IMG/VR virus record: IMGVR_UViG_3300034063_001075
Coordinates: 12,034-76,033 of that record
Origin: a virus
DNA length: 64,000 bases
Reading direction: 5' to 3' (one strand)
A model generated the notes under the pieces. It saw only the letters and a list, made by a program, of their open reading frames with translations, was not told the origin of the DNA and did not search any database. The position numbers were made by a program, and so were the translations under genes. This document shows, piece by piece, positions 20,580 to 56,900 of the stretch. The stretch's first letter is position 1; each line of letters begins with the position of its first letter.

Positions 20580-21326
20580 ATGCTAAACATACTGAAAAAG
20601 AACAACCCCCTCGAAATCTACTGGTGGACCGACGTCGAAGGGCTCGCTGAGGTATGTCCGATCCTAAGAGGTCACGAAGTTCCGCCCCCTGACTACTGGA
20701 CTAAAATCCCGAAAATTCCGGACCTCAGCAACGTAAAGGACCGAGGGACCGCAAAGAACTGTCCCGCCATTCCCGATATGTGGAACATGGGGTATGTCCT
20801 TCCGCTTTGGTGTGACACAAAGTTTACGTTTTCCGAAGGGGGCAAATACACAATCGTTCCTTCAGACAACAGGTTCTCTTTTACGCACCACGGCGACAGT
20901 CAGTACAAAGACCACCTCCCAAAAAAAGTTCAGGACGCTGTGAAAATGGTGATCAAGGCGAACTGTCCGTGGAGGGTCCGGACCCCGGAGGGGTACAGTA
21001 TGATGCAGTTGCCGATGTACTACCACCACGACGAGCTTTTCGAAGTGATGCCGGGGACCATCTGGACGGATATCCACCATGAAATCAACCAGCAGATGGT
21101 GATCAAAAAGCATGGGGAGTTCATCCTCAAGCGAGGACACCCACTCGCGGCTTACATCCCGTTCCGAAGGGACAACTTCAAAACAATCATTGAGGGACCC
21201 AACCCCCGCAACAGAGCGTGGGACTTGGAATCTCGGACACGTCTTTGGACTAAGTTTCGGTTTGGATATCGAATGGGTCAGGCTGAGCACAAGAAGAAGT
21301 GCCCGTTTCACTCACTGTTCCAATGA
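20580..21326 (+). CDS. Hypothetical protein (beta-clip/DUF6065-like)
   Basis: TAKNCPAI, PWRVRTPEGYS, PGTIWTD, LKRGHPLAAYIPFRR, C-terminal KCPFH. Confidence 0.55.
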   Translation: MLNILKKNNPLEIYWWTDVEGLAEVCPILRGHEVPPPDYWTKIPKIPDLSNVKDRGTAKNCPAIPDMWNMGYVLPLWCDTKFTFSEGGKYTIVPSDNRFSFTHHGDSQYKDHLPKKVQDAVKMVIKANCPWRVRTPEGYSMMQLPMYYHHDELFEVMPGTIWTDIHHEINQQMVIKKHGEFILKRGHPLAAYIPFRRDNFKTIIEGPNPRNRAWDLESRTRLWTKFRFGYRMGQAEHKKKCPFHSLFQ

Positions 21327-32968: not shown

Positions 32969-33370
32969 ATGAGACCTTCATGGGCTGAATTTGCAATGAG
33001 CGCGGCTGAAGTAGCCTCCTCTCGGTCGGAAGACCCGTGGGTCAAAGTCGGGGCCTGTGTCCTCCGAAAGGACCACAGCATAGCCGGGGTTGGGTACAAC
33101 GGAGCGCCCTCTGGAGTCGAAATCGACTGGTCCGACCGGGAGAAACGAAGGCTCTATGTGATCCACGCGGAGGCCAATGCACTGAGGTATTTGAGGCCTG
33201 ACGAGGGGGATATCATAGCCGTCACCCTAGCCCCATGTCCGAACTGCCTTACGCTAATTGCTTCCTACCGCATTCCGACAGTGTTCTACAGAGATACATC
33301 GGAAACATACCCGATCGGGATAACGGAAAATGTTGCATCAGAGTTAGGCGTCGTGCTGCACCAGATTTAG
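32969..33370 (+). CDS. dCMP deaminase
   Basis: RSEDPWVKVGA, GYNG, HAEANA, PCPNC. Confidence 0.9.
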   Translation: MRPSWAEFAMSAAEVASSRSEDPWVKVGACVLRKDHSIAGVGYNGAPSGVEIDWSDREKRRLYVIHAEANALRYLRPDEGDIIAVTLAPCPNCLTLIASYRIPTVFYRDTSETYPIGITENVASELGVVLHQI

Positions 33371-33478
33371 TTCCCGTTCGGGTATATGTCGGAGGTAGCC
33401 GACATCCTGTAAAAGTCGGAGAACGGCGACTCCCGCCCCATCAAGTGCGAAAGCGTTATCGAAAGTAAGGGGGAAGAG

Positions 33479-33809
33479 CCCCACTTTCCCACTGCCTCCC
33501 CACTGCATATTCGAAGGCCTACAGAGTAAAAGTGGGAGTGGGGTAAGGGGGGTGGGAAAATAATCCCGGCAAAAATCTAAGAGGCGTTGGGGGCCTTCCC
33601 TTATATTATAATTTTTAGTCCATAAATGTTACTTTTCTTCATTTATCTCCACTTCTGGCTACCCATCCGTCCCGTGCAAGACTCCGATTTACTCTGTTGA
33701 ATGAGGGTCTTTCGGGGCGGGGGCTGGGCCTTTTTGGGAGTGGGGGTAAGTGGGGGTCCCCTCTGTAGCGTTGTCCCACTTCAACCCCACTTTTTAGGCC
33801 TACCCCACT
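33479..33809. repeat. Iteron-like CCCACT/AGTGGG repeats around an AT-rich core (candidate origin or packaging site)
   Basis: Ten copies in both orientations within ~330 bp; AT-rich 33600-33645; non-coding. Confidence 0.55.
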
Positions 33810-33983
33810 TCCAGACCAAAAATTTTTTCTATCCCCCTAATTAAAGTAAAGACATTGCCGATTTCCCCCCTCCGGTCCTACCCGCGTGGTGGATGCTAGC
33901 TCCGTCTCTGCTTCTCTGTCGAGAGCTAAAGGGGGACGGTCGGGGGACAGATGACGGGACCAACAGACAGGGGCCAGAGCGCC

Positions 33984-34772
33984 TCAGACAGGGGGCGGAG
34001 CAGGCAGGGCGAGGAGCGGCTCCCCGCTCTCTGTTGGCGACCCGCTCTCACATTCTTGCGGCCTTCTCTGTAGCGGCCTGCTTTGGACGTCAATCTGCTC
34101 CTCTGCTAGCTGAGACAGGAAGCCGATGTTCACTATGGTCTTCGACTCCTTGTCTCCTTGGTCTAGGCCCAAGGTCTGTCTGGCTACAGAGTTGAGGGAA
34201 GAGATATCTTTGGCCTTGGACAGAAGCTGAGGGCCGTTCATCTTCGCTACTGAGTCCGCAAAGACTAGGGAGGCCCTTGCCATCTTCTCTCTGTAGCTCT
34301 TACCCTGCTCGACTAGCTTAGAGACGGCGGCATTGGTCGCCGATTCGAATCTCGCCTGTGCCGCCTCATGGAGGGCGTCTATCTCCCTAGCCCACCCCTC
34401 CCTGCTGAACCTAGCTGTGAGGGTCTGCACCCCGCACCCCATGTCCGCCGCTATGTCTGCATAGGTGTCGCCACGGGCACGGCGAATCCTAGCCAACATC
34501 CAATCGATTGAATCAGTAAAGGTATCGGTCCCCGACTTCATTCGCTTCTTCGTCGCATAGCTCCTCTTCTTCTTCTTAGCCGGAGGCGATTCAGGATCAG
34601 GGGACTCAGGAGAATCAGGCGTGCTAGCACTGCTAGCAACTTCAGACCCGGCAGCCTCCGGGTCAATCGCCGGGTCAATCGCCGGGTCTTCCGGGGGAAG
34701 CGCTGGGTCACTGTTGTGGAGCGCTAGCACAGTATCGAGAAACTCTTCTGACGGTTGGTCGTTCTGTTCCAT
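33984..34772 (-). CDS. Putative terminase small subunit (HTH)
   Basis: TYADIAADMGCGVQTLTARFSREGW helix-turn-helix, coiled coil, ARQTLGLD...IVNIG; start at MEQND. Confidence 0.6.
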   Translation of the reverse strand: MEQNDQPSEEFLDTVLALHNSDPALPPEDPAIDPAIDPEAAGSEVASSASTPDSPESPDPESPPAKKKKRSYATKKRMKSGTDTFTDSIDWMLARIRRARGDTYADIAADMGCGVQTLTARFSREGWAREIDALHEAAQARFESATNAAVSKLVEQGKSYREKMARASLVFADSVAKMNGPQLLSKAKDISSLNSVARQTLGLDQGDKESKTIVNIGFLSQLAEEQIDVQSRPLQRRPQECESGSPTESGEPLLALPAPPPV

Positions 34773-34819
34773 TCGATCAAAGGACGCTAGCAGCAAATCA
34801 CTGATTTGCAAGAGGTTTG

Positions 34820-34847
34820 TGATACCTGCTAGCAGGTTGGGGATAAG
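34820..34847 (+). promoter_or_regulatory. Early bipartite element, copy 1 (box variant TGGGGATAAG)
   Basis: TGATAC-N12-box; ATG 7 nt downstream. Confidence 0.65.
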
Positions 34848-34854
34848 TCGCTGT

Positions 34855-35943
34855 ATGGAAAACATCAACACCACAATCAACCTCACAGCAACTGAACTCA
34901 GCGCTCTCTCTGTTAAAGAGCTTCGCAAGCTCGCCAACGAACAGAGCCTCGGGTCCGGAGGCTGGAGGGCCACCGCAACCAAGGACGCTCTCGTCACCGC
35001 GCTCTCGACCGGACAGGTTCCCGCTTCGCCGACGAACTCGGCTGCTAGCGCGGCAACTCTCGCCGATGCCATCGAACGTGTGATTTCCTCGGTCACACCT
35101 TCGCTCGACGAAGACCGTGTCCGCGAACTGATCGCGGAGATCGTCCCCACAATCGACTCCAACCGCCCCCGAGAGATTGAGGTCATCCGCCTCGACACCT
35201 CCAAGGTCAACGTGGGTCGCCAGCACTACCTGTTCGCACAGCTTCTTCAGTGGGCTGCTCTCCGGATTCCGGTCATGCTCGTCGGCCCCGCTGGCTCTGG
35301 CAAATCGACCGCCGCTGAATTTATCGCCAAAGCGCTCACTCTGGAATTCTACCCGATGAGCGTGACGAACCAGACGAGCAAGTCCGATCTGATTGGCTAC
35401 AAAGACGCGACCGGAAACTACCATCCTAGCATCTTCCGCCGCGCCTTCGAATTCGGTGGGGTCTTCAACCTCGACGAGGTGGACAAGGGTAACGCGAACG
35501 TCCTCGCCGTGCTGAACTCGGCCTCGGCGAACGGTTACTGCTCGTTCCCCGACCGTGTCGTGCAAGCGCACCCCGACTTCGTCTTCATCGCCGCTGGCAA
35601 CACCTACGGCCTCGGGCGGAACGCTCAGTTCGTCGGCTCCAATCAACTCGACGCCGCTACGCTCAACCGTTTCGCCACTCTGTCGTGGGGTTACGACGAG
35701 TCGCTGGAGAGCGAAATCACCGCGCCGTTCGGTCAGACCGATTGGGTTCGGTTCGTCCAGAAGGTCCGCTCTGTCGTGGATTCGCTGGGCATCCGCCACA
35801 TCGTCTCGCCCCGCGCTAGCATCCAAGGTTCACAGGCCCTCGCTGCGGGAATCGACCGCCATGACGTCGAGTCCGCCGTGCTCTGGAAAGGCCTCGACTC
35901 CGCTTCAGTGGAGAAGGTCCGCCAGAACCTCATCGCCGCCTAA
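34855..35943 (+). CDS. MoxR/CbbQ-like AAA+ ATPase #1 with N-terminal HeH/Rho-N-like module
   Basis: GPAGSGKS, FNLDEVD, AAGNT, LDAATLNRF, VSPRAS. Confidence 0.85.
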   Translation: MENINTTINLTATELSALSVKELRKLANEQSLGSGGWRATATKDALVTALSTGQVPASPTNSAASAATLADAIERVISSVTPSLDEDRVRELIAEIVPTIDSNRPREIEVIRLDTSKVNVGRQHYLFAQLLQWAALRIPVMLVGPAGSGKSTAAEFIAKALTLEFYPMSVTNQTSKSDLIGYKDATGNYHPSIFRRAFEFGGVFNLDEVDKGNANVLAVLNSASANGYCSFPDRVVQAHPDFVFIAAGNTYGLGRNAQFVGSNQLDAATLNRFATLSWGYDESLESEITAPFGQTDWVRFVQKVRSVVDSLGIRHIVSPRASIQGSQALAAGIDRHDVESAVLWKGLDSASVEKVRQNLIAA

Positions 35944-35992
35944 CCGGATTGGCACAGGGTCCGACCCCCTGTGCTAGCACCTCAACCAACTC

Positions 35993-36020
35993 TGAAACTC
36001 TGAAAACCTCTGTGGATAAG
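35993..36020 (+). promoter_or_regulatory. Early bipartite element, copy 2
   Basis: TGAAAC-N12-TGTGGATAAG; ATG 6 nt downstream. Confidence 0.7.
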
Positions 36021-36026
36021 AACCCG

Positions 36027-36917
36027 ATGAAAACCAGCACCACCTTCGAAACCGATCACACGCTCGTCCGATTCCCTTCGTTCGCCGACTACGTGGCCGC
36101 ATCTGAGGCCCCGAACCCGAGTTCCGAAATCGGCAACCATTTCGGCAAGGGCAACGAGTGGGCGGGATACGCGACCCTCACCCAAGCCCGAGACCTCATG
36201 TCCTCCGGTTGGGAAGAAGGCGCGGCCCGAGTCCGCTCAATCTCCGACCGTGTCAAGCAAGCCATCCCCGATGCCGTGCTCAGCGCCTTCCGCCCCGAAC
36301 AGGTTTGGGACGTCACAGGCGAGCAACTCGACGTGGGTCGCTTTCTCGACGGCGAGCCCGAGTGCTTCATGGACGAGGTGGTCCCCGATCGTTCCGAGCA
36401 AATCGACGGCAACGGCATTGTCCGCATCACGATCAACCTGTGGGCCTCTGCTGGAATCTCGCCCGACGAACTCCGGACGCGAGGCGTCTTCGTCGCAGCA
36501 CTGGCGGACGTGCTGGAATCGATCGGCTACCGCGCTCAGATCGACGGCTACGTTGCTAGCGCCACCCATCACGACGTCAAAGGCAAGATGCTCAAGCGTC
36601 CGCTCGTCATCGCGTTCCCGATCAAACGCCCCGACGAGGCTCTGGAAATCGACCGCCTGTCGTTCGTGCTAGCTCACGCCGCCTCGCTTCGCCAGATCGG
36701 TTTCCATGTCATGGACGTTGTCGGGTCTCGCGCCAAATACTACGGCTCGCCCTGCACCTTGCCCAAAGTTTACGAGGGCCACGTTCCGGTCAACGCCCTG
36801 CACTTCCGTGACCTCACCGACAAGGATACGGCCAAGCAAATCCTCGACCAACTCAAACAGCTTGGGGTGGACCTCGACACCGACGACCTCTTCGAATCCA
36901 ACGACGAGTGCTTCTGA
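36027..36917 (+). CDS. Degenerate VWA-like partner of AAA+ #1
   Basis: G..LDVGRFLDGEPECF, VRITINLWASAG (MIDAS-like position), ALADVLESIGYR; follows a MoxR gene. Confidence 0.6.
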   Translation: MKTSTTFETDHTLVRFPSFADYVAASEAPNPSSEIGNHFGKGNEWAGYATLTQARDLMSSGWEEGAARVRSISDRVKQAIPDAVLSAFRPEQVWDVTGEQLDVGRFLDGEPECFMDEVVPDRSEQIDGNGIVRITINLWASAGISPDELRTRGVFVAALADVLESIGYRAQIDGYVASATHHDVKGKMLKRPLVIAFPIKRPDEALEIDRLSFVLAHAASLRQIGFHVMDVVGSRAKYYGSPCTLPKVYEGHVPVNALHFRDLTDKDTAKQILDQLKQLGVDLDTDDLFESNDECF

Positions 36918-36954
36918 GGAATCCGGTGCGGGGTCCGATCCCCCGCGCCCCCGC

Positions 36955-36982
36955 TGATACACGCGCAACCCCTGTGGATAAG
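36955..36982 (+). promoter_or_regulatory. Early bipartite element, copy 3
   Basis: TGATAC-N12-TGTGGATAAG; ATG 9 nt downstream starts a 30-aa hydrophobic ORF (36992-37084). Confidence 0.7.
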
Positions 36983-37088
36983 ACTGAGACCATGAACATA
37001 TTCATCCCCATGCTTTTCTTCGTGATCATTCCCGCCGCTGGAGCGATCGCCATTCTCATCGCCGACCATTACCGCAACGACTAACAAC

Positions 37089-37346
37089 ATGACCGCCGAA
37101 CCCACACTTCAAATCCGTCACGACCACCCCTCGCTTCGCCCGACCTTGGAAGAGGCTCAGCAATATGTCGGGGGGCTCGTCGAAATAGCTCCGGTCTACA
37201 ACTCCGAATACCGTGACGCACAGCTTCTGGTCAACGAGGAGGGCCTCGTCCACGACCTACCACCCAACGTCCTCGCTAGCATCTTCGCAGGTTACGAGAT
37301 TCGCGGCAACGCCATGATCCTCTTGGGCGCGGCCAGATGGGATTGA
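37089..37346 (+). CDS. DUF3846-like protein
   Basis: PTLEEAQQYVGGLVEI...VNEEGL...N..AS...IRGN. Confidence 0.7.
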   Translation: MTAEPTLQIRHDHPSLRPTLEEAQQYVGGLVEIAPVYNSEYRDAQLLVNEEGLVHDLPPNVLASIFAGYEIRGNAMILLGAARWD

Positions 37347-37392
37347 CCATGAACTCTTTCACCCGCTTCGAATCTCTGACCAGCACTGTGCG

Positions 37393-37420
37393 TGATATCT
37401 TCGAAACCCCTGTGGATAAG
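37393..37420 (+). promoter_or_regulatory. Early bipartite element, copy 4
   Basis: TGATAT-N12-TGTGGATAAG-ACTACG-ATG. Confidence 0.7.
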
Positions 37421-37426
37421 ACTACG

Positions 37427-37726
37427 ATGAAAAACCAATTCAGCCGCAAACATTACGAGGCGATCGCCTCCGCTCTCGCCAACCGCATCGCCCTTGAGGG
37501 CGCTCAGTCACCCGCCGCTGGCGGCATTCGCCTCGCCGCTCTCGACCTGTCCTACGTCTTCGCCGCCGATAATCCGCGCTTTGACCGTGGCCGATTCCTG
37601 TCCTCCGCTGGCGCAATCGACACGACCTTCCGACCGTTTCGCCGCCCCGAGCCCGACAACGGCCAGCGCACCCCCCGCTTCAGTGCGCTTCAGCCTTCCG
37701 GATCGCCCTTCGCTCGTTCTTATTGA
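37427..37726 (+). CDS. Conserved phage early protein
   Basis: SRKHYEAIA...FAADNPRFDRGRFL motif. Confidence 0.65.
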   Translation: MKNQFSRKHYEAIASALANRIALEGAQSPAAGGIRLAALDLSYVFAADNPRFDRGRFLSSAGAIDTTFRPFRRPEPDNGQRTPRFSALQPSGSPFARSY

Positions 37727-37771
37727 CCGACTGCCATCAACCCGCATATACCAATCATCACCTTGCCATCT

Positions 37772-39769
37772 ATGAATCTCGATCTTCTCCAGTCCGTGCT
37801 TGAGGCGTTCGTTTTCCTCACCGTGCTCATCGCTACTGCGATTGCGCTATGGCCCGAACCCGCCGTCGAACCCGAACCCGAGCATGATAGTCCGTTCGAC
37901 GACTTCGATACTCAGCCTCAGTGCGAGGAGTTTTACGCCGACTAGTAAGCAACCTTCCATACACCAACACCAACCAACACACCAACAACCATGCCCGAAA
38001 CCATCGAACCCAACGCCGTCCTTCCTACGATTGACGGACCACTCAAGCTGAGCCAGCAACACGTGGCGTTCCTCGCCGTGCTAGCTGCTCTCAGCGGCGA
38101 CCCGAGCGAGGCTTTGCAATTTGCACAGACCGAGCCCGACTACTTCATTTCACAGTCCAACGACTGGGCGGCGGAACAGGAGGTGTCGCTTTGAGAAACG
38201 GACCCTTCACTCTTGACGAGGTCTTCGACCGGATCGCCGAAATCCTCGACCTCCCCGAGGAAACGAACGACCTCTTCAATGCGTTTCTAGACGAGGCTCC
38301 CTGCGGCGAGGAAGAGGACGAGAGTCCACTTCTTGATATCCTCCCGAACGCAGAGCAAGTCGAGGACGGCTTCGTCTATCGCGTCTCAGTCAATGAATCG
38401 GAAAGCGGCAACACGCTAGCAAGCGCCGTCTTCCAAACAGAGGAGCAGGGCCAGCAAGCCATCGACCTTCTCCTTCTTCTCCAAGAACTCAACGAACACG
38501 GACTGCACTAAACTTATGATACCACTGCACAACACAGTAATGGGCCAGCGATTGATTGAGGGCACGTTGCCCGACATCGCTCGCGAACTGAAAGCGCTCA
38601 ACGTGAACATGAATCGGATTGCAGAAGCGTTCGAAAAGAAAGAGGTCTTTTCTTCTTCGTCCTCTTCTAGCTCTTCGGTGACTACCGTGGCGACCTGTCC
38701 GCCACCTCCGGTTTGTCCGGTTCCGGAAGGGACCTGTCCGGTCTGCGTAGTTGAAGCGCTTGTCGAACACTTCGAAAGCATACATGGCGAGGGCGCTTGC
38801 GATTGTCGCCCCGAACCCGAGAACGAGGGATACACCTGCCCGATCTGTATCGCTCGCCTGTTTATTGACGAGAACGATGGGAGGGAACACTGATGGAACC
38901 CAAAGAAGTCACAGAGCTAGAACGTGCGCGTCAGATGAATCACCGCCACATCAACCTCACGTTCCGCACCGAGATTACCACCGACGACATACCGGACGCC
39001 GCGCTGTTGGGATACCTCAAGAAGCGTTCGCTGTCCGAACTGTCGCAACGCCGCACCGAGATCATCGACGACGAAGGGAGGGGACAATGATGCTAGCAGA
39101 CTTTGACCCCAAACCTTTCGTGGGGTGGGCGCGGAACATGGCATCCATCCTCAAGGACGGCGGCACGTGGGCTGTGCCTATGAACCAAACAGCGTATCGC
39201 TTCGACCACAAAGCCAAGCAACTTGTCTTGGTCTATGGTCCGGAGGACGAGTTGTTTGAAAAGACCCGCTCTGTCTTTTCCGAAATTGGCTACACCGTCA
39301 TCGCCGATCCCGACCGTCCTTTGGGCGGCGAGTGTCCTGCGACCATCTTCTCCATCTGACCACCATGCACCTCTCCGAGTTACCCGACCAGACCACCCCG
39401 CTTTGCCTCTTGTATCACAACGGCACGGTCAACATGGTCAATGACCGAGAGGACACGATGGAGATTTCTCCGGTCCAGACCCTAGCTGTGGCCCAACTTA
39501 TGGACCGCGATAACCTTTGGGAAAGTTTCCGAGCGAACGACAGCTTCATGCAGTTGTTCCGCTTTGTCTTTCCGGAGGAACATATCGCCCCCGAACGCAA
39601 AGCTAGCACCGGAGTGCGGCACGTGTCGGGCATGATAGTCCTGTTGGCCGCAGCTAGGCGGGATCGGCTCCGCGCTTTTCTCCGTTTCCCCGAATCCTAT
39701 TTACACCCCAAGGCACAGTTAGGACTGGCCGACATGATGATAAGCCTGTCGAAACCAAGCTGTTGCTGA
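37772..39769 (+). other. Run of seven small coupled hypothetical ORFs (37772-37945, 37991-38194, 38191-38511, 38516-38893, 38893-39090, 39087-39359, 39365-39769)
   Basis: Head-to-tail ORFs with overlapping stop/start; 38516-38893 has three CPxC motifs. Confidence 0.55.
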
Positions 39770-39793
39770 TTTCTAAAACTCCCTGTGGATAAG
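39767..39793 (+). promoter_or_regulatory. Early bipartite element, copy 5
   Basis: TGATTT-N11-TGTGGATAAG-ACTACG-ATG. Confidence 0.65.
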
Positions 39794-39799
39794 ACTACG

Positions 39800-40661
39800 A
39801 TGAACGCTGAATTTACACCCACCGCTTGCGATAAGGAGAGTTATTACATCACCGTGGGCGACTACGTTGCCCACAACCGGAAGCTTTATCGCGTTGTCCG
39901 CATATTCGAAGACCCGAGTATCGAACCTCCCGCTGGTAATACCTTTCTAGAACTTATCAGCATCAAAAACCTTTCTATCTTGGTCGTCCGTGACAACACC
40001 GTCGAAGTGCTGGAATGACATGAAGCGCCACTACCTTGTTCACACTCGCGGCCACTCCTATGCGTTCACCGCAGAAGAAGGCAAAGAGCTACAGCTTCCC
40101 CCTCGTTTGCGGAAGCGGGTCGCCGCTCACCTCAAAATTCACGATATGCTTTTGGATGAATCGGTAACGATTTTCCAAGGCAGCACCGGAATCGTTCTTC
40201 AACGAGTCCGCCCCGATTGGAGTCACGCTTATGAAAATTAAAATCAACACAACCGTTGACGTCGATCCGGTGAAGTGGGTTTTGAACCGCTACGGAACGA
40301 CCGTGAAGTCCGACCGCAATGTCCAGTGCCGGAAGCTAGCAGAGGAGATTCGTGAAGGCTGCTTGCGAGCCATCGATGAATATTTAGAGCAATACGACCC
40401 AAGCAAATGAAAACTCAACTCACCCAAGAAGAGGTATCCACCCTCCAAACGGAACACCAAGAAATGTTCGTCGCGTTGCTAGAAGCTGTGTCGGCTCTCG
40501 ACCGGATCGATGAGTTGCTGTTGGAACAAACCAACAGCCCCCGCGAATGCGCCCTTGGCGAAGTGAGTCGTGGCCTCGCTGTGATTTGCCGCGTAGCCGC
40601 TCGTCACCGCGACTCCGTTTACCGCCACACCATAAGTCGTTTGGAATCAAGGGGTTCGTGA
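39800..40661 (+). other. Four small coupled hypothetical ORFs (39800-40018, 40020-40241, 40231-40410, 40407-40661)
   Basis: Head-to-tail arrangement behind element copy 5. Confidence 0.5.
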
Positions 40662-40686
40662 TACTTTGATTTGCCCTGTGGATAAG
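40659..40686 (+). promoter_or_regulatory. Early bipartite element, copy 6
   Basis: TGATAC-N12-TGTGGATAAG-TAACTG, then a CA-rich leader. Confidence 0.7.
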
Positions 40687-40728
40687 TAACTGTCAGCACA
40701 CCAACCATCAACCAACACATCAACAACC

Positions 40729-41073
40729 ATGCCTAAAAAATCCGCCTCCGAAATCGCCGCTGAGAATCTTGAGAAAGACCTCACGTCGAAATACCCGACT
40801 CCGAAGATCGTTGCCGAGTTGATCGAAAAGGAATTCATCGCGGCCCCTTCGTTGTCCCGCATCGTGACGCAGTTGGCTTATTACGCCTTCCGCGACACGT
40901 CTGACAAGGAACGCACCGTGAAAGCGTTCAGTGACCTCATTCACTTCTGTGAAATGGCTGAGGATCAAGTCAAAGAGGGTCTCACAGCCATCGGCATTCT
41001 CAATGGCTTGGCCGAAGACTTGGTTGACACGGCAACAAAGCGGGAGGCCAACCCCTTTGCGGGGGTGAACTGA
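40729..41073 (+). CDS. Hypothetical protein
   Basis: 114 aa, CA-rich leader. Confidence 0.6.
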   Translation: MPKKSASEIAAENLEKDLTSKYPTPKIVAELIEKEFIAAPSLSRIVTQLAYYAFRDTSDKERTVKAFSDLIHFCEMAEDQVKEGLTAIGILNGLAEDLVDTATKREANPFAGVN

Positions 41074-41080
41074 TCCCGCT

Positions 41081-41135
41081 GCGGCGGAGTCGTCCGGTGG
41101 TTTTATGTCCCACTGGTTCTCCACGACTCCGCCGC
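41081..41135. other. Long intergenic hairpin
   Basis: GCGGCGGAGTCGT/ACGACTCCGCCGC 13-bp perfect stem plus inner CCGGTGG/CCACTGG. Confidence 0.6.
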
Positions 41136-41177
41136 CCAACTTTCAAAATCCAACTAACCACTAACTAACCTAGCACC

Positions 41178-41423
41178 ATGCCACTAACTAAAACTGAACT
41201 GACAAAACGCCGCCTTGAATTCTACCGAGGATACGAAGCGGATCGTGAAGAAGAAGTCGCCACGCTCAAACGTGGGCAAGACGAACTGATTAACCTCATT
41301 CGCGCTCTTGTCCTCGTTTCCCGCCGCGACGAAACGATCAACAACATCATTAAAGAACGCGAGTCGTTTGTGGATCACTCTTACGACTCCGAATGTGAGG
41401 AATACGAAAAGAAGAACAACTAA
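41178..41423 (+). CDS. Hypothetical protein
   Basis: Shares the leader ACTAACTAACCTAGCACCATG with the next gene. Confidence 0.55.
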   Translation: MPLTKTELTKRRLEFYRGYEADREEEVATLKRGQDELINLIRALVLVSRRDETINNIIKERESFVDHSYDSECEEYEKKNN

Positions 41424-41440
41424 CTAACTAACCTAGCACC

Positions 41441-42580
41441 ATGTCAACTACCGAACACAGCCACGCAATCGTGGAATCCAGCACACCCTCGACCGCCAGC
41501 ATCGATCTTTCGACGCTAACCGTTGCGGGTCTCCGCAAGCTCGCTTCTAATCGCGGGATTGGAACGGGTGGGTGGCGGGTCTCCGCGACTCGCGACCAAC
41601 TCATCAACGCGATCACCCTTGGTCACGTCCCGACCCCCACGCCCGTTGCTCCGGCTCCGGCCTCCGTTGCTCCTGCTCCTGCTCCGGTCGCCCCGAGCGC
41701 TAGCACCGTGGTCTCACCTGCGATCCAACCGTCCCGACCCGCACCCGTGCTGGTTTATCCGGACGTCGATCCTAGCTTCGTCGTTTCCAAGGAGGTTGCC
41801 GAACTCGTCGATGTCGTTCTGCAAATCCCCAACGGCAAGATTCGCAACGTCCTTGTCACCGGACCTGCGGGTTGCGGCAAGACTGAGCTAGCACGTTTCT
41901 CTGCGGCTACGGGCAAAGCTCCGTTCTTTGAGTTTTCCATGCCGCTGTATCGTGAACCTCTCGACCTCTTCGGCGAGAAGTGCGTAGCGGACGGCAAGAC
42001 GTTCTTCCTGCCTAGCTTGTTCATCCAAGCTTTGGAAACACCTCACGCTGTTATCCTCCTCGACGAGGTTAACCGTGTTGCTCCGCTCCTCGCCAACGGT
42101 CTGCTTCCGTTGCTCGACCACCGCAAGGAGGTTTATGTGGAAGGCCTTAACCGGATCGTCCGTGTTGCCGAGAACGTCACGTTCTTCGCCACGGCGAACA
42201 TCGGCGTCGAATACACCGGAACATTCCGCCTCGACTCCGCTCTGGCCTCGCGCTTCCCGTATCGCATTGAGGTGACCTACCTCGACCGCGAGTCCGAATC
42301 CAAGTTGCTTGCCGAGCGTTGCGGGATTACCCCCGAGGATGCTCAGATGCTAGCAACCGTGGCCGAGACGATCCGCGCCAAATCCGCCGACTTCGGTGGA
42401 ACCCTGTCGCACTCAGTCTCGACCCGCGAACTCATCGGCGCGGGGTGGCTGGTCGCTGGCGGTCTGCCTACGGGCAAGGCCCTCACGCACACCATTGTCC
42501 CCACCTTCGATCCCGAGGGTGCGGAGTCTTCGGAACGGGCACAAGTCCTTCAAACTGTTCAGCTTGTCTGTGGTCTCTGA
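41441..42580 (+). CDS. MoxR/CbbQ-like AAA+ ATPase #2 with the same N-terminal module and a Pro/Ala linker
   Basis: GPAGCGKT, ILLDEVN, ATAN, LDSALASRF, VSTRE. Confidence 0.88.
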   Translation: MSTTEHSHAIVESSTPSTASIDLSTLTVAGLRKLASNRGIGTGGWRVSATRDQLINAITLGHVPTPTPVAPAPASVAPAPAPVAPSASTVVSPAIQPSRPAPVLVYPDVDPSFVVSKEVAELVDVVLQIPNGKIRNVLVTGPAGCGKTELARFSAATGKAPFFEFSMPLYREPLDLFGEKCVADGKTFFLPSLFIQALETPHAVILLDEVNRVAPLLANGLLPLLDHRKEVYVEGLNRIVRVAENVTFFATANIGVEYTGTFRLDSALASRFPYRIEVTYLDRESESKLLAERCGITPEDAQMLATVAETIRAKSADFGGTLSHSVSTRELIGAGWLVAGGLPTGKALTHTIVPTFDPEGAESSERAQVLQTVQLVCGL

Positions 42581-42605
42581 TACCAGATAGCAACCTGTGG
42601 ATAAG
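42578..42605 (+). promoter_or_regulatory. Early bipartite element, copy 7
   Basis: TGATAC-N12-TGTGGATAAG-TAACTG. Confidence 0.7.
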
Positions 42606-42704
42606 TAACTGAACAGAACTTTCCATCCACCCCTCGCCGGAAGGGGTAAAGCTCCCAACAGAGCATCCGGCCAACTTTCCAAAAACACCAACCAACAACT
42701 GACC

Positions 42705-44816
42705 ATGTCTCAATATTCATCATTCGCCGATTACCACCGTCAACGTGCGGCTAGCTCCGGTGCAGCTATGAAGCGCCGTGCCTCTACTTGGTTCTACGAA
42801 GAGAAGACTGAGGACCGTAGCGACCGTAGCTGGAAGAACTACGAAGATGACGAACTCTTCGATGCCGAGGCCTACGATGGTTCCAAGTATTCAGCCTCCG
42901 CTTCCCTTGGCCGCTATTGGGGTAGCTACTCCTCCTACGGGGACTCCGATAAAAAGAAATCCAAGAAGCAGGAGAACTCCGAAAAGCTAGCTCGCTCACT
43001 CAAAGCTGTGGCGCGGTCATGCAATGCGATTCGGTCTACCGTTGGGCGCGGCAAAGACCTTTCCCTCAAGGTGAAATGGAGCAGTGGCTTTGACGGTAAC
43101 AACGTCCGTCAGAATGACGTGATAGTGCTTTCGCCCGATACGATCTTACAGACCAAGGTCAAAGAGAACTGGGACGAAGGCAAACGCTCTGACGCTCTCG
43201 TTGGTGACGCACTTACCGCCGCCGCTCAGAAACGCACGATCACTCCCTCTGTTGTGGCGGAAGCTGTATTGGCCTCCCAAACCGACCCCGATGCCGAGAC
43301 TGCCCGACTACTGTGGTCCGCTGTCGAGACGGACGTTGCCCAATCCGCCCTGCTTAACGACTACCGTGGCGCGGCTGTTTACTTTGCTGCTAGCAACGCG
43401 TTCCACTCTTCCGACGAATACCGGACAGTCGTGGAAAACTCTTTCACGGACGGTCAAACCCGCAAGTCTGATGCCGCTACCGTGGCGCTGGCTTGGAACA
43501 TCCTCCACCAGAAAAAGCTAGAGCTTCCGGAGGACGTTAGAGAACTCACTGCTACTGCGATGCGTGAATTCGCAAAAGCCAAGACGTGTCGCGATCGTTG
43601 GAACGCTTCTCTTCGCGCCGTCAAACTTCTCCGCTCGCTTGATCCCGAGCAACCTCCGCAGGAGAACCCGCCCTCCCCACCCGAGGAAGAAAGCGCAAAC
43701 CAAAACCCCAACGGGGAGGGCGGGGATGCGGAGCAGGATGCTTCCGAGGAAACTAGCGTAGTTAAAAATGGCGCTGGGCAGATTGGTATGTCCGATCTCC
43801 TTGGCGACCTCGTTGAGAACACAACAGGTCCGGTTCAATCGAACACCCAAGACGTGGAAGAGATTGCCGAGGAAGACGAGTCGTCCCTCAACTCCCGAAA
43901 CACCATCGACGATGAGTCTAGGCACACCCGTTTGCACGACCACCAACAACTAAACGGTTGCCGCTCTGCGGTTGTGGCCCCCGCAACCAAGGCCCTGCTA
44001 GCAGGTTACAACGGGTTGGTTCGCCGCCTTTCCGGCTTGGCCGATTTGTTCTCTACCGTCAACACAGTCGAATCCTACGGTCGCCGTTCCGGTGTGCTTG
44101 ACGATGCCAAGCTGTGGTCCGTTCCGTCCGGTGAAACAAACGTCTTCATCCGCCGAGACGAGACAGGCGAAAAACGGGAGGTTTCAATCGCTGTGCTTGT
44201 CGATCTTTCCGGTTCGACCGGATGCCAGATAGACACGTCTTTCGGCGGTTTCGCCGACTTTAGAGAAAGTGTATCGTTCGAAGAGCGTGTAAAGCGCCTT
44301 AACAAAACGGATGAGGACTATCCGCAACACGTTCCGATTTCCGTTCATCTTAAACGGGCGGCGTCCATCTTAACTGAGGCTCTCCGTGCTTCTGATACCA
44401 ACACTGGCGTCCGCATTCAAACTTACGGACATTATTGTGGGCACGTCGAGTATTACGGCCAGACCGCCAACTTGGTTCAAGGCGACAACGGTGGCGGGAC
44501 CGACGAAGCAGGTGCGCTAGCACGGACTGTCAAACACTTTACCGAAAGCGACACTCGCGATTGCCGTAAGATCGTAATCTGCATTGGGGATGGTGAGACT
44601 GATTCAGCACACCTCCGCAAGATCGTTGATGCGTCTGCCAAGCTAGGCGTCGAAGTCTATTCCATTCTTGTAGCGCATCACGAAGGGCGCATCAAACAGC
44701 ACGGCGAAGTTGCCTTCGGCAAGGGCCGCTTCTGCGGTCTGTCGATTGATACCGCGAAAAACCTTCCGACTGTCCTCACTTCGTTCGTCACCCGCATCCT
44801 TTCGAAAGCCCGTTAA
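42705..44816 (+). CDS. VWA (CobT/NorD-like) partner of AAA+ #2
   Basis: RSGVLD...VLVDLSGST (MIDAS), GGTDE, ICIGDGE; acidic linker. Confidence 0.8.
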   Translation: MSQYSSFADYHRQRAASSGAAMKRRASTWFYEEKTEDRSDRSWKNYEDDELFDAEAYDGSKYSASASLGRYWGSYSSYGDSDKKKSKKQENSEKLARSLKAVARSCNAIRSTVGRGKDLSLKVKWSSGFDGNNVRQNDVIVLSPDTILQTKVKENWDEGKRSDALVGDALTAAAQKRTITPSVVAEAVLASQTDPDAETARLLWSAVETDVAQSALLNDYRGAAVYFAASNAFHSSDEYRTVVENSFTDGQTRKSDAATVALAWNILHQKKLELPEDVRELTATAMREFAKAKTCRDRWNASLRAVKLLRSLDPEQPPQENPPSPPEEESANQNPNGEGGDAEQDASEETSVVKNGAGQIGMSDLLGDLVENTTGPVQSNTQDVEEIAEEDESSLNSRNTIDDESRHTRLHDHQQLNGCRSAVVAPATKALLAGYNGLVRRLSGLADLFSTVNTVESYGRRSGVLDDAKLWSVPSGETNVFIRRDETGEKREVSIAVLVDLSGSTGCQIDTSFGGFADFRESVSFEERVKRLNKTDEDYPQHVPISVHLKRAASILTEALRASDTNTGVRIQTYGHYCGHVEYYGQTANLVQGDNGGGTDEAGALARTVKHFTESDTRDCRKIVICIGDGETDSAHLRKIVDASAKLGVEVYSILVAHHEGRIKQHGEVAFGKGRFCGLSIDTAKNLPTVLTSFVTRILSKAR

Positions 44817-44832
44817 CCACTAACCAAGAATC

Positions 44833-44860
44833 CGATACCAACAAATCGTCCGTGGATAAG
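44833..44860 (+). promoter_or_regulatory. Early bipartite element, copy 8 (variant CGTGGATAAG)
   Basis: CGATAC-N12-box; ATG 6 nt downstream. Confidence 0.65.
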
Positions 44861-44866
44861 TATTGT

Positions 44867-45103
44867 ATGGAAACACCCACAACAACAGCCCCCGTCAACC
44901 GCACCCGAATCCCCAGCCTCGTCAACCGAGCCGCTCTACGAAAGCTGCTCCTCGACATTGCGGCTGAGGAGAAGGGCCACTTGCCGTCCTGCTATCACCT
45001 CAAGCGTGTAGCAGATTCTGTCTTCGACGAGGCCGAGGCCGCGCTCCGGACCTTCGCCCGTAACAAGGTCCGCTCCGTTAGAAAGGGAAAGACCATCCAG
45101 TAA
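44867..45103 (+). CDS. Small basic protein
   Basis: SLVNRAALRK...RVADSVFDEAEAALR...KGKTIQ; possibly bacterial histone-fold-like (weak). Confidence 0.55.
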   Translation: METPTTTAPVNRTRIPSLVNRAALRKLLLDIAAEEKGHLPSCYHLKRVADSVFDEAEAALRTFARNKVRSVRKGKTIQ

Positions 45104-45229
45104 CCCCTTTTGACAGGGAGAGGAATTGCGGCGGCGTTTGGTTCTTTGCGCTGGTTATTTTCATTCTCCTGCTCCGTAACCGCGTAAAAGCGGAGCGCCC
45201 TGTCAACCCCTTGACTTTCACCTACCAAT

Positions 45230-45451
45230 ATGCAACCATCATACACCTACACCGTGACCTATAAAAACTTACCGTGCTGGCATCCGGTTCGCCAAATGCA
45301 CCGGAACCCCTCGTTCGATCGTGAGAACGACTGGCTCTTCGACCTGTTCTCCCGCCGCCGTCCCTTGTCTCTCTGGCAACGGCTCAAAGCCTTTGTCGCG
45401 AGGGAGTTAGCTCCGGTCTCTGATCACCTTAAACGGACTGTGGATAAGTAA
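45230..45451 (+). CDS. Hypothetical protein
   Basis: 73-aa ORF between an intergenic structure and element copy 9. Confidence 0.4.
   Translation: MQPSYTYTVTYKNLPCWHPVRQMHRNPSFDRENDWLFDLFSRRRPLSLWQRLKAFVARELAPVSDHLKRTVDK
45421..45448 (+). promoter_or_regulatory. Early bipartite element, copy 9
   Basis: TGATCA-N12-TGTGGATAAG; ATG 7 nt downstream. Confidence 0.7.
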
Positions 45452-45455
45452 CCGT

Positions 45456-45872
45456 ATGCAAACGTTCCTACCTTATCCCAACTTTCACGACTCTGCCCGA
45501 GTCCTCGACAATCGGCGTTTAGGCAAGCAACGGGTTGAGACGCTTCAGATTCTCAAAGCTCTCAGCCTCCCCACTTACGGTTGGCAAAACCACCCCGCTG
45601 TCAAAATGTGGCGCGGCTTTGAGCGGGGGCTCGCCGTCTACGGCGTAGTGATCTGCAACGAGTGGCTTCGGCGTGGTTTCAACGACACCTGCCTCGACAA
45701 GATTCGTCTGTATCTCAACGTGCATCCGACTGGGGGCACGATCCCGCCGTGGATCGACGACGAACAATTCTGTCGGTCTCACCAATCCAATCTCATCCGA
45801 AAGGATCGCGCTCACTACGCCCCTTTCTTCCCCAACGTTCCGGACAACCTCCCGTATGTCTGGCCCAACTGA
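45456..45872 (+). CDS. MSMEG_6728-family / pyrimidine-dimer glycosylase-like protein
   Basis: MQTFLPYP...LDNRRLGKQRVE..QIL...GWQNHPAVKMWRG...SHQSNLIRKD...LPYVWP. Confidence 0.8.
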   Translation: MQTFLPYPNFHDSARVLDNRRLGKQRVETLQILKALSLPTYGWQNHPAVKMWRGFERGLAVYGVVICNEWLRRGFNDTCLDKIRLYLNVHPTGGTIPPWIDDEQFCRSHQSNLIRKDRAHYAPFFPNVPDNLPYVWPN

Positions 45873-45875
45873 TCT

Positions 45876-46094
45876 ATGAAACAACGCAACTACAAAAAGG
45901 AATACCAACAGTTCCATGCAAAGCCCGAGCAAAAGCAAAACCGCGCTCAGCGTAATGCGGCTCGCGCAAAGATGGCCGCTGCTGGCCGAGTCCACAAAGG
46001 GGACGGCAAAGACGTCCATCACGTCAAAGGCATGAGCAACAAAGCTAGCAACCTTCGGGTCATGTCTGCCTCCCGTAACCGCTCAATCAAATAA
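45876..46094 (+). CDS. Small HNH-like endonuclease
   Basis: KGDGKDVHH...SNLRVMSASRNRS. Confidence 0.7.
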   Translation: MKQRNYKKEYQQFHAKPEQKQNRAQRNAARAKMAAAGRVHKGDGKDVHHVKGMSNKASNLRVMSASRNRSIK

Positions 46095-52549: not shown

Positions 52550-53263
52550 TCAACGGGAAAAATCAGTGTTCAAGGAATTTTTTTTCCAACAGTTATCTGG
52601 GAACGCCATATCAGATGTTATTCCTTTGGCTAGCACGTCGAGGGGGACGTGAACTTGCGCTTGGTTGGCGCACCCGCAAATACCGCAGTTTAGAAGACCA
52701 TCATCTTTTGACGTTTTTCTCCGCCCGACTATGGAGGCGATCAACGAGATAATGCTCGTACACCCGGCACACCCGGAAGCCGGGACGTTTTGCGGACACC
52801 CGGCGCAGATGCTAGCACGTCTTTCGGCCTCTTCTTGGGAGACAAAATCTGCACGGGTCGTCATCCATTCCTTCAGAACGGCTAAGAAATTCCGCACGTC
52901 GCCCACTGTGAGGCTCCGCGTTTTGCCTTTTTCCTTAGGACTTTGGAACGGTTTACAGAACGCCTCCCCGAGATTGTTCTGCTCGCAAATTAAAGACTGA
53001 AACACCATCGGCCACATTCGGGGAATTCCTAGTCTGTTTGCGACTCGAAGTTGGGTCGCCTGTTTGAAAACCTCGTTGATATTTATGTGGTTCAAACGAA
53101 CTCCGGTGTCGGGGTCCGTATAGGTCCAACCTCCTGATGGGACGTCTGTTGTATTGAAGATCGTGAAACGCACGGGCTCGTTGTGGATAAGGTGTTGTGA
53201 AGACATTTGTTCAACTCCTTCTATCAACGGCTTGTTTCGTTGCTCGGCGCGTGGTCTCGACAT
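52550..53263 (-). CDS. Cys-rich putative metal-binding protein
   Basis: RASICAGCPQN, GCAGC, CGICGC, CWK. Confidence 0.6.
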   Translation of the reverse strand: MSRPRAEQRNKPLIEGVEQMSSQHLIHNEPVRFTIFNTTDVPSGGWTYTDPDTGVRLNHININEVFKQATQLRVANRLGIPRMWPMVFQSLICEQNNLGEAFCKPFQSPKEKGKTRSLTVGDVRNFLAVLKEWMTTRADFVSQEEAERRASICAGCPQNVPASGCAGCTSIISLIASIVGRRKTSKDDGLLNCGICGCANQAQVHVPLDVLAKGITSDMAFPDNCWKKNSLNTDFSR

Positions 53264-53923: not shown

Positions 53924-56900
53924 TTATTCAATCGGCACTTTCAGTCTGCCGTTCGCGATGTCTTTTTGGACTTTGGCTTTGGCGTAGGCGTTGGCATCTG
54001 GTCCGAGTTCGCTAGACAGCGCCGTCTGCACGGCATCCCTGTCTTTTTGCGCTGCTGTCGCTAGCTTGCTTGCTAGTTCGTCGGTCACGATTCGGTCTAC
54101 GTATTCGCCGCGATACTTTTGGAACGCCCTCCATACGTCTGCATATCGTCCAACGGGAATTTGGATAGTCGTGCCGTCCTTTTTCGGAAGGACAATTTCC
54201 GTCGTTTTGCTGGGGCCTGTAAGCCTTAGCCCAGCCGTAACGAGTTTGGTATCGGCCTCGTTGAGGGGGCGAGGTTCGATAACCCCAAACCTACGGGTCG
54301 TGGCCGTCCACGGGTAATCCTTGATTTCATTCCCACGGTAATCGATCGCCGCTTTGTTGTATCCGAGCGAAAGTGGGACCATCGAATACAGCCACCCTTC
54401 AGTGGTCGAGTAATCCAACTTGTTGACCATTCCATCTTCGCCCATTGCGAAAGTGCTTCGAATCCACCGGAGCATACTGGGGTTGGTATATCCGCCGACG
54501 ATTCCGGAGGTGATCTGTTTAAGCCCGGACTGGGTTTGATTGGGGTCCCCGGTAAAGATTTTGAAGAAGTTGCTAGCACCCGCAAACAGGCTCTTGCTGG
54601 TGATTGAACTAAACGCGCCCACCGCTGCCGCCCATGCACGGTCTCCCGCTGTCTTCTCTCCACCTTTTTCGTAACGGTATACGTCAGAAATTGTTCCGAA
54701 GATACTCAGTGGGAGGTTGACCAAGGGGAGGTCCGTAAAGCGGAGGCGGAGGCTTCCGAATTTCACAGTGCTCGGTTGCCACCCCGCTGCTTCCAGTTGC
54801 TGGCGCTGCGCCTTATCGGTCGGGCCTTCACCGTAGACCGCGAACCAAGGCTCCTTGCCCTCTTCTTCGTCTTCGAATCCTTTGAGGACCATCAAAGTAA
54901 GGGCGAGATACGTCAGCGAACCCGACACACCCATGAACACCTTCTCGTAGAATTCCGGCGACCCCGCTTCGATCGGGCGTTTAGTACCATTCTCGTCAAC
55001 GTCCCACCTGTAGACGCTGTCGCTAGGCAGGATTGCCGAAGGGGTTAAGCCGTAAGCTCTAAGTATTCCGACAGGGCTGAAATCCAACGCGGCGTTGAGA
55101 AGGTTCGCCAAGGTGTTCATAAAGCTGAACACAAATCGAGTTACGCCGACTCGGCGGTTCATTTCGCCAATGAGCCCACTGAGGACTTGCCCCAAGATAC
55201 CTTTGGCTTGAGCGTTGAACGTCCATCCTTCGGCTGTTCCTCTAGCTTGGCGCTTGAGGTCTGGCATCAGTTCGAACCTCCGCTGCTCCAGCAGTTCGAC
55301 CATTCGGTTTTGAATACCCACGTCCCGCAGCTTTTCTATCTGCGCTTTTCGTGCGTCGCCCTTGATGCCTGCTAGCGTCAGTTCTGACGGGTCGAAGAGG
55401 CCTGCTTTGGCTTCCTGCTCAGCTTGCCGACGGGCGTTTTGGATTGCCGATTCGGACGGGTTCAGTAGTTCTTCGAACGCCTCTTGATTCGCTTTGAGTT
55501 GTCCCGTGGAGAGGGCATATCTCAGGGCCATTCTGGATTTTACCTCACTGGCGATGGCTGCGTTCCCCGCGTCTGCGGCGACCATTACGCGCCCGACATA
55601 CTTGTGGAAAGTAAGGGCTTTCATATCCACTTTTTCGAGAACGCCGAATTCGTCCGCCTTTTCGTTACGGAACCGCGTTGAGCCCGTTGCCATTCCCTTT
55701 CGGAATGCGGTCGTTACCGCGTTTGGCATACCTTCTTCTGAGAACATTCCGAGTGCTCCGAGGTATCCAACCACCGCGTCTGCAAAGTAGAGGGACCGAT
55801 CGCCTAGCGAAGCATTCTTGTCGGCCCACGCATATCCTGCTGCGGATGATAGAGAGCGCATGAGGATGTGGAGATTGCTCATGCTGACGTTGACAAGCTG
55901 TGTCGGAACACCACTGAGAACACCCGCCTGCCAAACTGCTAGCGGAACATCCATGAAGTACAGCTTAGCCCACGCTCTGATGTCTTGTTTCTTTAACGTG
56001 TCTGTATGCTTCTTGGAAATTTGCGTCAGCAGTTGTTTGGCTGCTTCTGCCCGAGCATCCGACTTGTCCGGCATTCGTTGAATGCGGTCTGCTTCCTTTT
56101 CTACTTTGCGGGAAAATTCTTTGTCGTATTGCGGCAGCTTAAACTGCTTAGCCACAGCATTGTAGAAAGCCTCGTTGGAGAAGGTTCCCATATTCGCCAA
56201 TTCCAGAAGGTCCTGCATTGCGGAGTTCGCTACTTTCTTCTCCTTCTCCGGTGCGTTGGCCGATGCCACCGTGCGTTTGATTTCCGCTTCAATGGCCGCT
56301 TTGACGTTCCGCTTGTAGGCCACCCGAATGGCTTCTGCGACGGCTTCAGCTACCTTCGGGGAGATGTTGAACTTGCTTTGGAACAAGTTGACAAGGGTGT
56401 CCTCCGACGCTTCTTGAGAAAGAACGTGCTTTCTGATTTCGGCCCGGAAGTCATACGCATCCCTCACTACTTTCATCAAATTGTCGTCGATGAGAACGTT
56501 ACCAAGCTTCATTTCTTCGAGGGCTTCGATTTGGGCGTCTGTAAGCGGGACAGACTTGTTGTCTTCTCTCCGTTTTTCGATGTCTCTTAGAATTTTCGAT
56601 CGGGTCTCTTCGAACATTCTTTCTGCCCACGGGCGGGAAAGGATTGCTTGGGAAAGCTTGTCCAAAATCTTTTGTGCCTGCCCGTCTTTCGACTGCTGCA
56701 AAGCCATTTCCAGTTCCTCTTCGGTGAACTTTTTCTTCAGTTCTTCTTCAGTGACCCGTTTGAGTTCCTTCTTGATCGCCGTTTGAACAACGCCCCGGAT
56801 TTCGTTTGCAACGATTGCTAGCACTGGGCCAGATTGTGCTTGGTTGCTATCGGCCAACAGCAGGTTGCTTATCTTTTTCGACAAATCTTGGACGTACCGC

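Follow-up and report, generated by a model that had tools for sequence, protein, structure and literature searches.

We identified ten copies of a two-part DNA element, (c)TGAtAC-N12-TGTGGATAAG, in an uncultured phage, and with moderate confidence we regard them as one promoter class private to this phage lineage, seven copies of which would give leaderless mRNAs. The elements lie in a stretch of 64,000 nucleotides (nt), hereafter the window, comprising bases 12034–76033 of the 76,033-bp IMG/VR virus record IMGVR_UViG_3300034063_001075. An original prediction, made from the sequence of the window alone, had described nine of the copies as early phage promoters whose core is a perfect DnaA box. 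The anatomy, statistics, conservation, and distribution of the elements are direct observations on the sequences and are given first; the identity with a DnaA box is most likely a by-product of the promoter architecture.

Anatomy of the Element

The core TGTGGATAA occurs perfectly eight times in the window, always on the plus strand and always followed by G (table 1), against an expectation of 0.26; none of 100 shuffled sequences reached eight. Two further copies carry one mismatch (TGGGGATAAG at 34838 and CGTGGATAAG at 44851). Our recount agrees with the original prediction on seven perfect and two one-mismatch copies in a single orientation, each followed by G, and confirms 53182 as the only other perfect core; the latter also has TGAAAC at −18 and is a tenth full copy of the element. 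Both strands of the whole record were searched with up to two mismatches and by a relaxed bipartite scan, and there is no eleventh copy. The absence of degenerate extras indicates that the class is sharply bounded at exactly ten members.

The window consensus is TGAtAc-N11-C-TGTGGATAAG. As the original prediction had noted for its nine copies, the distance from the start of the upstream hexamer to TGTGG is 18 nt in all cases except 39784, where it is 17 nt, and the gap from cTGATA to GATAAG is 17 bp in nine of the ten copies and 16 bp in one. The 12-nt spacer between TGAtAC and TGTGG is not conserved except at its C-rich 3′ end. Nine copies are co-directional with the next gene and occupy short intergenic gaps, and at three of these (copies 5, 6, and 7) the TGA of the upstream half is at the same time the stop codon of the preceding gene. 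The placement of ATG 6–9 nt after GATAAG at seven copies was likewise reproduced, with longer CA-rich leaders at 40677 and 42596. When the copies of a sister phage are included (see below), ATG stands at +6 to +9 in 9 of 15 scorable sites, all nine being ATG codons (binomial P ~5e-8). At copy 10, the GTG of a 58-amino-acid (aa) plus-strand open reading frame (ORF) lies 5 nt after the core, and the minus-strand ORF that contains the copy is downstream of a giant ORF; from its position, this copy is a candidate antisense promoter that would yield an antisense RNA.

Table 1. Positions in the window of the ten elements, the block that holds nine of them, and a small gene near the integrase
Feature	Position	Strand	Core start	Element	GATAAG to ATG	Downstream gene and remarks
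Copy 1	34820..34847	+	34838	TGATAC-N12-TGGGGATAAG	7 nt	MoxR-type AAA+ gene 34855–35943; spacer palindrome CTGCTAGCAG
Copy 2	35993..36020	+	36011	TGAAAC-N12-TGTGGATAAG	6 nt	DUF7192 gene 36027–36917
Copy 3	36955..36982	+	36973	TGATAC-N12-TGTGGATAAG	9 nt	30-aa hydrophobic ORF 36992–37084, then DUF3846 gene 37089–37346
Copy 4	37393..37420	+	37411	TGATAT-N12-TGTGGATAAG	6 nt	99-aa ORF 37427–37726
Copy 5	39767..39793	+	39784	TGATTT-N11-TGTGGATAAG (upstream half at −17)	6 nt	72-aa ORF 39800–40018; TGA is the upstream stop
Copy 6	40659..40686	+	40677	TGATAC-N12-TGTGGATAAG	42-nt CA-rich leader	114-aa ORF, ATG 40729; TGA is the upstream stop
Copy 7	42578..42605	+	42596	TGATAC-N12-TGTGGATAAG	99-nt leader	703-aa partner, ATG 42705; TGA is the stop of AAA+ gene 41441–42580
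Copy 8	44833..44860	+	44851	CGATAC-N12-CGTGGATAAG	6 nt	78-aa ORF 44867–45103
Copy 9	45421..45448	+	45439	TGATCA-N12-TGTGGATAAG	7 nt	Pyrimidine-dimer DNA glycosylase gene 45456–45872
Copy 10	53164..53191	+	53182	TGAAAC-N12-TGTGGATAAG		Outside the block; antisense in the 5′ end of minus-strand ORF 52550–53263
Accessory block	33400..45900	+				Copies 1–9; ~12 kb; GC 55–59% vs ~52% elsewhere
Ribbon-helix-helix-like gene, 56 aa	19683..19853	+				Directly after the integrase and a conserved ribbon-helix-helix gene

The tight coupling of motif and ATG at nine sites, in a genome devoid of Shine–Dalgarno sequences, could also be expected of a signal acting in RNA, either a translation-initiation enhancer that replaces the Shine–Dalgarno sequence or a cleavage site that trims the mRNA to its AUG. 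We consider this highly improbable because four sites lie 41–99 nt from the start codon. Moreover, the motif is missing from most phage genes, which have CA-rich leaders; a signal in RNA gives no reason for a conserved partner 12 nt upstream at the spacing of a DNA promoter; and the element sites folded no better than shuffled sequence and have no conserved fold.

Proposed Promoter Architecture and Likely Readers

We infer promoter activity, the start site, and the reader of each half. The geometry of the element is that of the sigma-70 family: cTGAtAC stands at −35 and, across a gap of 17 bp, GATAAG, with TGTG before it, resembles a −10 hexamer. The predicted start of transcription is ~7 nt after GATAAG, which at seven copies is the A of ATG; as the six-base gap is the distance from a −10 hexamer to the first transcribed base, these mRNAs would begin at AUG. 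The copies at 40677 and 42596 would give transcripts with a CA-rich leader and no Shine–Dalgarno sequence. Within the accessory block, which is GC-rich, nine small transcription units would be driven by the class, with one more copy acting antisense in another operon. The original prediction had proposed the same −35/−10 geometry and leaderless starts, which the one-way intergenic sites, the 17-bp gap, and the position of ATG support. It had also pointed to the lack of a separate Shine–Dalgarno sequence; this is correct and is not special to the elements, Shine–Dalgarno sequences being absent before genes throughout the genome and not only before motif-linked ones.

Measured against housekeeping sigma-70 promoters, the spacing of 17 bp, once 16 bp, lies within the usual 16–18 bp, but the hexamers themselves do not agree. 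GATAAG, found in 15 of the 16 sites of both phages, has A at −11 but G at −7 and so departs from the form TAnnnT, a consensus that describes the housekeeping sigma factor and from which that of the host may differ. The upstream cTGATA agrees with TTGACA at four of six positions, and the sister phage has CACGTAAC in its place. Several points weigh against a promoter function. GATAAG has neither the T at −12 nor, more seriously, the T at −7 on which housekeeping sigma factors depend, and TGTG is displaced by one base from its place in a canonical extended −10, which makes an alternative host sigma factor or a phage helper likelier than the plain housekeeping holoenzyme. Near-perfect identity over 10 nt is also less usual in a −10 element than in the site of a dedicated DNA-binding protein. 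Lastly, for the factor that would read the element there is only a lead, a variable ribbon-helix-helix gene discussed below.

Alternative sigma factors offer partial parallels. Promoters of the extracytoplasmic function (ECF) type have TGAAAC or TGTAAC at −35, and the −10 element of sigma-28 is GCCGATAA. The upstream half, YGWWAC, ends in AC, which we take to be like the AAC motifs of ECF −35 elements, and GTGGATAA shares G..GATAA with the sigma-28 −10 element, so that TGAT-N15-GTGGATAA presumably has the geometry of TAAA-N15-GCCGATAA. In contrast to such promoters, neither consensus is fully matched, and no sigma factor gene was found in the phage.

Pfam and PHROGs searches of the phage ORFs detected neither a sigma factor nor an RNA polymerase, and six-frame searches with PF04542 (Sigma70_r2), PF08281 (Sigma70_r4_2), and PF08299 (DnaA domain IV) found no sigma factor and no DnaA-like domain. 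This leaves host RNA polymerase as the default and likely enzyme, with the downstream half presumably read by a conserved host sigma factor. A virion RNA polymerase of the kind found in phage N4 was considered and rejected. Promoters of the N4 type are short hairpins with a 5–7 bp stem and a 3-nt loop and are accompanied by a gene for the virion polymerase; the sites here have no hairpins, and the giant ORF has no polymerase match.

Among known systems, there is a close likeness to the middle promoters of T4, which depend on sigma appropriation and in which a MotA box lies 12 ± 1 bp from a −10 element (PMC2988021). Both are bipartite: a phage-specific box takes up the −35 region, and at a set distance from it is a closely conserved −10 element read by the host sigma factor, and in T4 as here many copies precede small genes, which in T4 are prereplicative. 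The present elements differ in that the downstream half is not TAtaaT and in that the transcripts would be leaderless. No PHROG or Pfam match to MotA- or AsiA-like factors was obtained in the phage, its small DNA-binding candidates being ribbon-helix-helix proteins only. A literature search returned no paper linking the motif to a phage promoter, and to our knowledge promoter classes of uncultured phages whose hosts do not use Shine–Dalgarno sequences are almost unknown.

Comparison with a Sister Phage

The close relative used for comparison, here the sister phage, consists of two fragments from one metagenome (G001, 22.7 kb, and L009/G002, 8.1 kb) that are collinear with window 10.3–39.3 kb at 64–78% nucleotide identity (~70%). 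It has six copies of the element with the same core and spacing. Four of the cores are perfect TGTGGATAAG. A fifth, CGTGGATAAG, precedes the integrase gene and is looped out between the hairpin arms GTCCCCC and GGGGGAC; its location indicates that the class extends beyond the accessory block. The sixth, at the ortholog of the DUF7192 gene, is TGTGAATAAT in the arrangement CACGTAAC-N12-TGTGAATAAT-N6-ATG; its hexamer is AATAAT, nearer to TATAAT, and the drift in this direction supports GATAAG as the −10 element. Over all 16 sites, G2, G4, and A6-T7-A8-A9 are invariant, G10 is present in 15, and most have C at −1. Judged from this pattern, strong constraint acts on the downstream half.

The upstream half behaves differently. 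In all six sister copies it is (G)CACGTAAC(C)T, with CGTAAC at −18 instead of TGATAC. The promoters of the AAA+ gene are orthologous in the two phages, sharing the spacer CTGCTAGCAGG, and yet have different upstream halves; the core of the L009 copy is perfect. The conservation in relatives that the original prediction had asked after is therefore found for the core, the spacing, and the box identity at ~70% identity, and not for the upstream half. Replacement of this half as a unit argues that it is not a universal −35 element and implies two different readers; because it was replaced wholesale, the upstream half would be read by a phage-specific factor. The natural swap of half sites in the sister phage thus separates a conserved reader from a phage-specific one.

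As to the latter, both phages have at the same position a 56-aa ribbon-helix-helix-like gene (table 1), the two versions being unrelated in sequence. Its product is a candidate reader of the upstream half, which we offer as a lead only.

A specificity-bearing half that changes between phages is also what one would see if the elements were not promoters but one-way operators for a phage repressor, the upstream half setting immunity specificity. Cluster A mycobacteriophages have such operators, called stoperators, scattered over their intergenic regions as asymmetric sites in one orientation, and the motif covaries with phage lineage (PMC6550527). The present sites share all of this: they are asymmetric, in a single orientation to transcription, intergenic, and dispersed, and their motif differs with phage divergence as in stoperators (PMC6550527, PMC9283540). 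An integrase is present, the small ribbon-helix-helix gene at a fixed position differs in sequence between the two phages, and at the sister integrase copy GTTACG lies 10 bp upstream of CGTAAC and forms an inverted repeat with it. Nevertheless, we think this explanation unlikely. Stoperators are single 13-bp repressor sites, whereas the present 28-bp site is tied to start codons and has two halves at promoter spacing over a non-conserved 12-nt gap, and a distance of 6–7 nt to ATG would be pointless for a roadblock. No CI-type repressor gene was found; a divergent CI-like candidate, a 214-aa minus-strand ORF, was rejected as a shadow of plus-strand genes. An operator over the −35 half could, moreover, coexist with a promoter.

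Resemblance to a DnaA Box

The original prediction held that the core is a DnaA box that could tie these genes to the replication state of the host. Such promoters would be coupled to DnaA, with the core kept as TTATCCACA through binding of host DnaA, which either represses when bound over −16 to −8 or is titrated during phage replication by ten high-affinity boxes per genome. The match is exact at eight window and four sister sites; TTATNCACA is fitted by 13 of the 16 sites, 12 of them being perfect TTATCCACA. Nor do the homologous promoters drift away from the box, the outcome that the prediction had held would speak against it: four of the six sister cores keep it in full, and the drifted TGTGAATAAT still fits TTATNCACA, the changes being at the free position and at one base outside the box. 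Unrelated loci totaling 3.1 Mb have perfect boxes at ~0.9 per 76 kb, compared with eight here. At boxes close to promoters, DnaA is well known both to activate and to repress, and lambda transcription is among the processes it affects (PMC8203912). As in the repressive cases among the DnaA-box promoters known from Escherichia coli dnaA and nrdAB and lambda pR, an exact TTATCCACA overlaps the promoter (PMC8203912).

In contrast to those promoters, the phage has ten dispersed single boxes fused to the −10 region in one register, with no clusters and no ATP-DnaA boxes, and there are no relaxed boxes or clusters of the origin or datA kind. DnaA binding alone would leave unexplained why the sites all point one way, have their partner half at a fixed offset, keep their distance to ATG, and lie between genes. 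Nor would it account for the conserved bases outside the box, namely C at −1 and, in 15 of the 16 sites, G at position 10. Pure titration sites would be conserved within the box only and free in orientation and context, unlike the sites observed. Box positions 7 or 9 are broken at three sites (TTATCCCCA once, TTATCCACG twice). The match most likely follows from the architecture, because TGTG abutting NATAAN is TGTGNATAA, the reverse complement of TTATNCACA; any promoter so built is a DnaA box by construction. With ~250,000 windows scanned, some repeated promoter core is also expected to match the 9-mer by chance. The phage encodes no DnaA-like protein by the searches above.

We therefore prefer the by-product explanation and find DnaA-coupled promoters improbable, even though DnaA would probably bind such DNA in vitro. 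We give similarly little credence to a combined scheme in which the −10 region is shaped to double as a DnaA box, so that DnaA gates the block or is drained, stalling host initiation, while the ribbon-helix-helix protein reads the upstream half. Either outcome would be of use. Binding by DnaA would couple a block of phage genes directly to the replication cycle of the host, and its absence would be a warning that promoter cores of the TGTG-plus-ATAA kind mimic DnaA boxes. With ten copies, exact geometry, and predicted leaderless starts, the case is a clean, testable example.

A different arrangement of boxes was seen in an unrelated family of viral contigs (L357, L360, L374, L383, L386, L389, L393, L403, and L404), which have four boxes (TGTGGATAAC/G) in ~180 bp, including one tandem pair; this looks like a DnaA-dependent origin.

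Accessory Block and Phage Family

Copies 1–9 mark a block flanked by backbone genes, a dCMP deaminase (32969–33370) and a 72-aa gene (45876–46094). It contains two MoxR-type AAA+ genes with partners, a DNA glycosylase, and many small ORFs. The original prediction had spoken of two AAA/VWA modules; AAA+ domains of the MoxR type are confirmed in 34855–35943 and 41441–42580, and no VWA domain was found in the partner proteins by Pfam, NCBIfam, or Protein Data Bank (PDB) sequence search.

The phage is a member of a large uncultured family with genomes of 66–78 kb and 50–60% identical TerL. Five complete members (G003–G007) have the backbone genes on both sides in common with it and none of the genes of the block, so that orthologous promoters cannot be compared there. 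They have 0–2 perfect boxes each, and among ten records searched the 9-mer GTGGATAAG occurs 0–1 times per distant member. Pattern scans of the whole collection found multiple bipartite copies only in the sister phage, with chance levels elsewhere. Since distant members lack both block and motif, these comparisons indicate that both are lineage-specific. There are also closer relatives, whose proteins match AAA1 at 92% and 87% identity and TerL at 82% (contigs of 75,204, 3,790, and 156,421 bp). The labels "early" and "host takeover" given to these promoters in the original prediction find no support here: the copies mark a lineage-specific block within a 30-kb array of a phage with an integrase, and a sister copy precedes the integrase gene.

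It is conceivable that the elements are mobile promoter cassettes that matter in evolution chiefly through recombination, serving as crossover points that shuffle accessory genes in the manner of the promoter-early stem-loop (PeSL) cassettes of T4-type phages (PMC2839356, PMC4122927). The copies flank small variable genes in a block that other family members lack, sites have been gained and lost between the two phages, one replaced segment starts at a promoter-bearing gap, two sister copies are identical over ~33 nt, and G+C-rich hairpins precede copies 2 and 3. Repeated, near-identical promoters in a plastic region of small variable genes are likewise a property of PeSLs (PMC4122927). Against this, most copies have only 10–16 nt in common, a short stretch for exchange by homology, no copy stands at the right-hand breakpoint of the replaced segment, and stem-loops are present at copies 2 and 3 only, unlike the terminator that accompanies each PeSL. 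We judge such a primary role very doubtful; recombination would be a side effect of a repeated promoter rather than an alternative to it.

The G+C-rich hairpins have a loop resembling that of a tRNA T-arm (GGGGTCCGAYCCCC) and lie after the AAA+ and DUF7192 genes (window 35957–35985 and 36931–36950; L009:4505–4525), just upstream of copies 2 and 3, where they may act in termination or processing. Another hairpin, CCCCTcgccggAAGGGG, in the 99-nt leader (window 42606–42704) of the 703-aa gene, is possibly a regulatory structure.

Other repeats were noted in the family. G003 (17.9–18.4 kb), G004 (22.1–22.5 kb), and G006 (45.3–45.8 kb) (L330, L335, and L344) have 10–12 copies of GGGTAGGGG(TG) on both strands within ~400 bp, probably an iteron-type replication origin. 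In G005 (L338–L341), GGTGACAAMCACC is dispersed between canonical TTGACG and TATAGT hexamers before many genes and looks like an operator-in-spacer promoter class.

Genome Setting and Host

A 127-bp sequence is repeated at both ends of the record. We take it to be an assembler overlap and the assembly to be circular, which fits a giant minus-strand ORF running on across the record junction. This 3287-aa ORF (window 53924–64000; L249:1–2400) leaves the record end and continues in frame over the 127-bp junction, so the real protein is longer and the plus-strand ORFs at record 558–2371 are probably shadows. Pfam, PHROGs, and PDB searches gave no RNA polymerase match for it, and those of Pfam and PDB no match at all; in its features it weakly resembles large polyvalent proteins.

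The phage encodes an integrase, a family-A DNA polymerase, a helicase-exonuclease, a DUF5906 primase-like protein, a dCMP deaminase, and a terminase, in addition to the two MoxR-type AAA+ genes, the DUF7192 protein, and the pyrimidine-dimer glycosylase. From the integrase (17994) through 48324, all real genes are on the plus strand, an array of ~30 kb. Many genes are preceded by CA-rich leaders of the type accaaccaacaacc-ATG. As genes lack Shine–Dalgarno sequences throughout the record, the host likely belongs to a lineage that does not use Shine–Dalgarno pairing. Family member G005 is similarly without Shine–Dalgarno sequences and has CA-rich leaders.

Clues to the host were few. With 401 genomes sampled from each of four phyla, the TerL family gave no match in Planctomycetota, Bacteroidota, or Actinomycetota and one weak match in Verrucomicrobiota. 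The nearest isolate is an Akkermansia phage (23%), and the phage has no tRNA or tRNA-like att site.

Window 19683–20573 holds three plus-strand genes, for the 56-aa ribbon-helix-helix-like protein, a 161-aa RuvC-like protein with an ILGVDPG motif, and an 81-aa HExxH protein with a weak match to IrrE/ImmA (Peptidase_M78), the last being a possible anti-repressor protease. They are followed at window 20580–21326 by a 248-aa gene (phrog_7084, function unknown), in place of which the sister phage has a 12-nt junction. Finally, GCTAGC occurs 91 times in this phage compared with 0–12 times in the five complete family members of similar size; TGCTAGCA is scarce in five bacterial genomes checked, and the enrichment of GCTAGC is private to this phage lineage.

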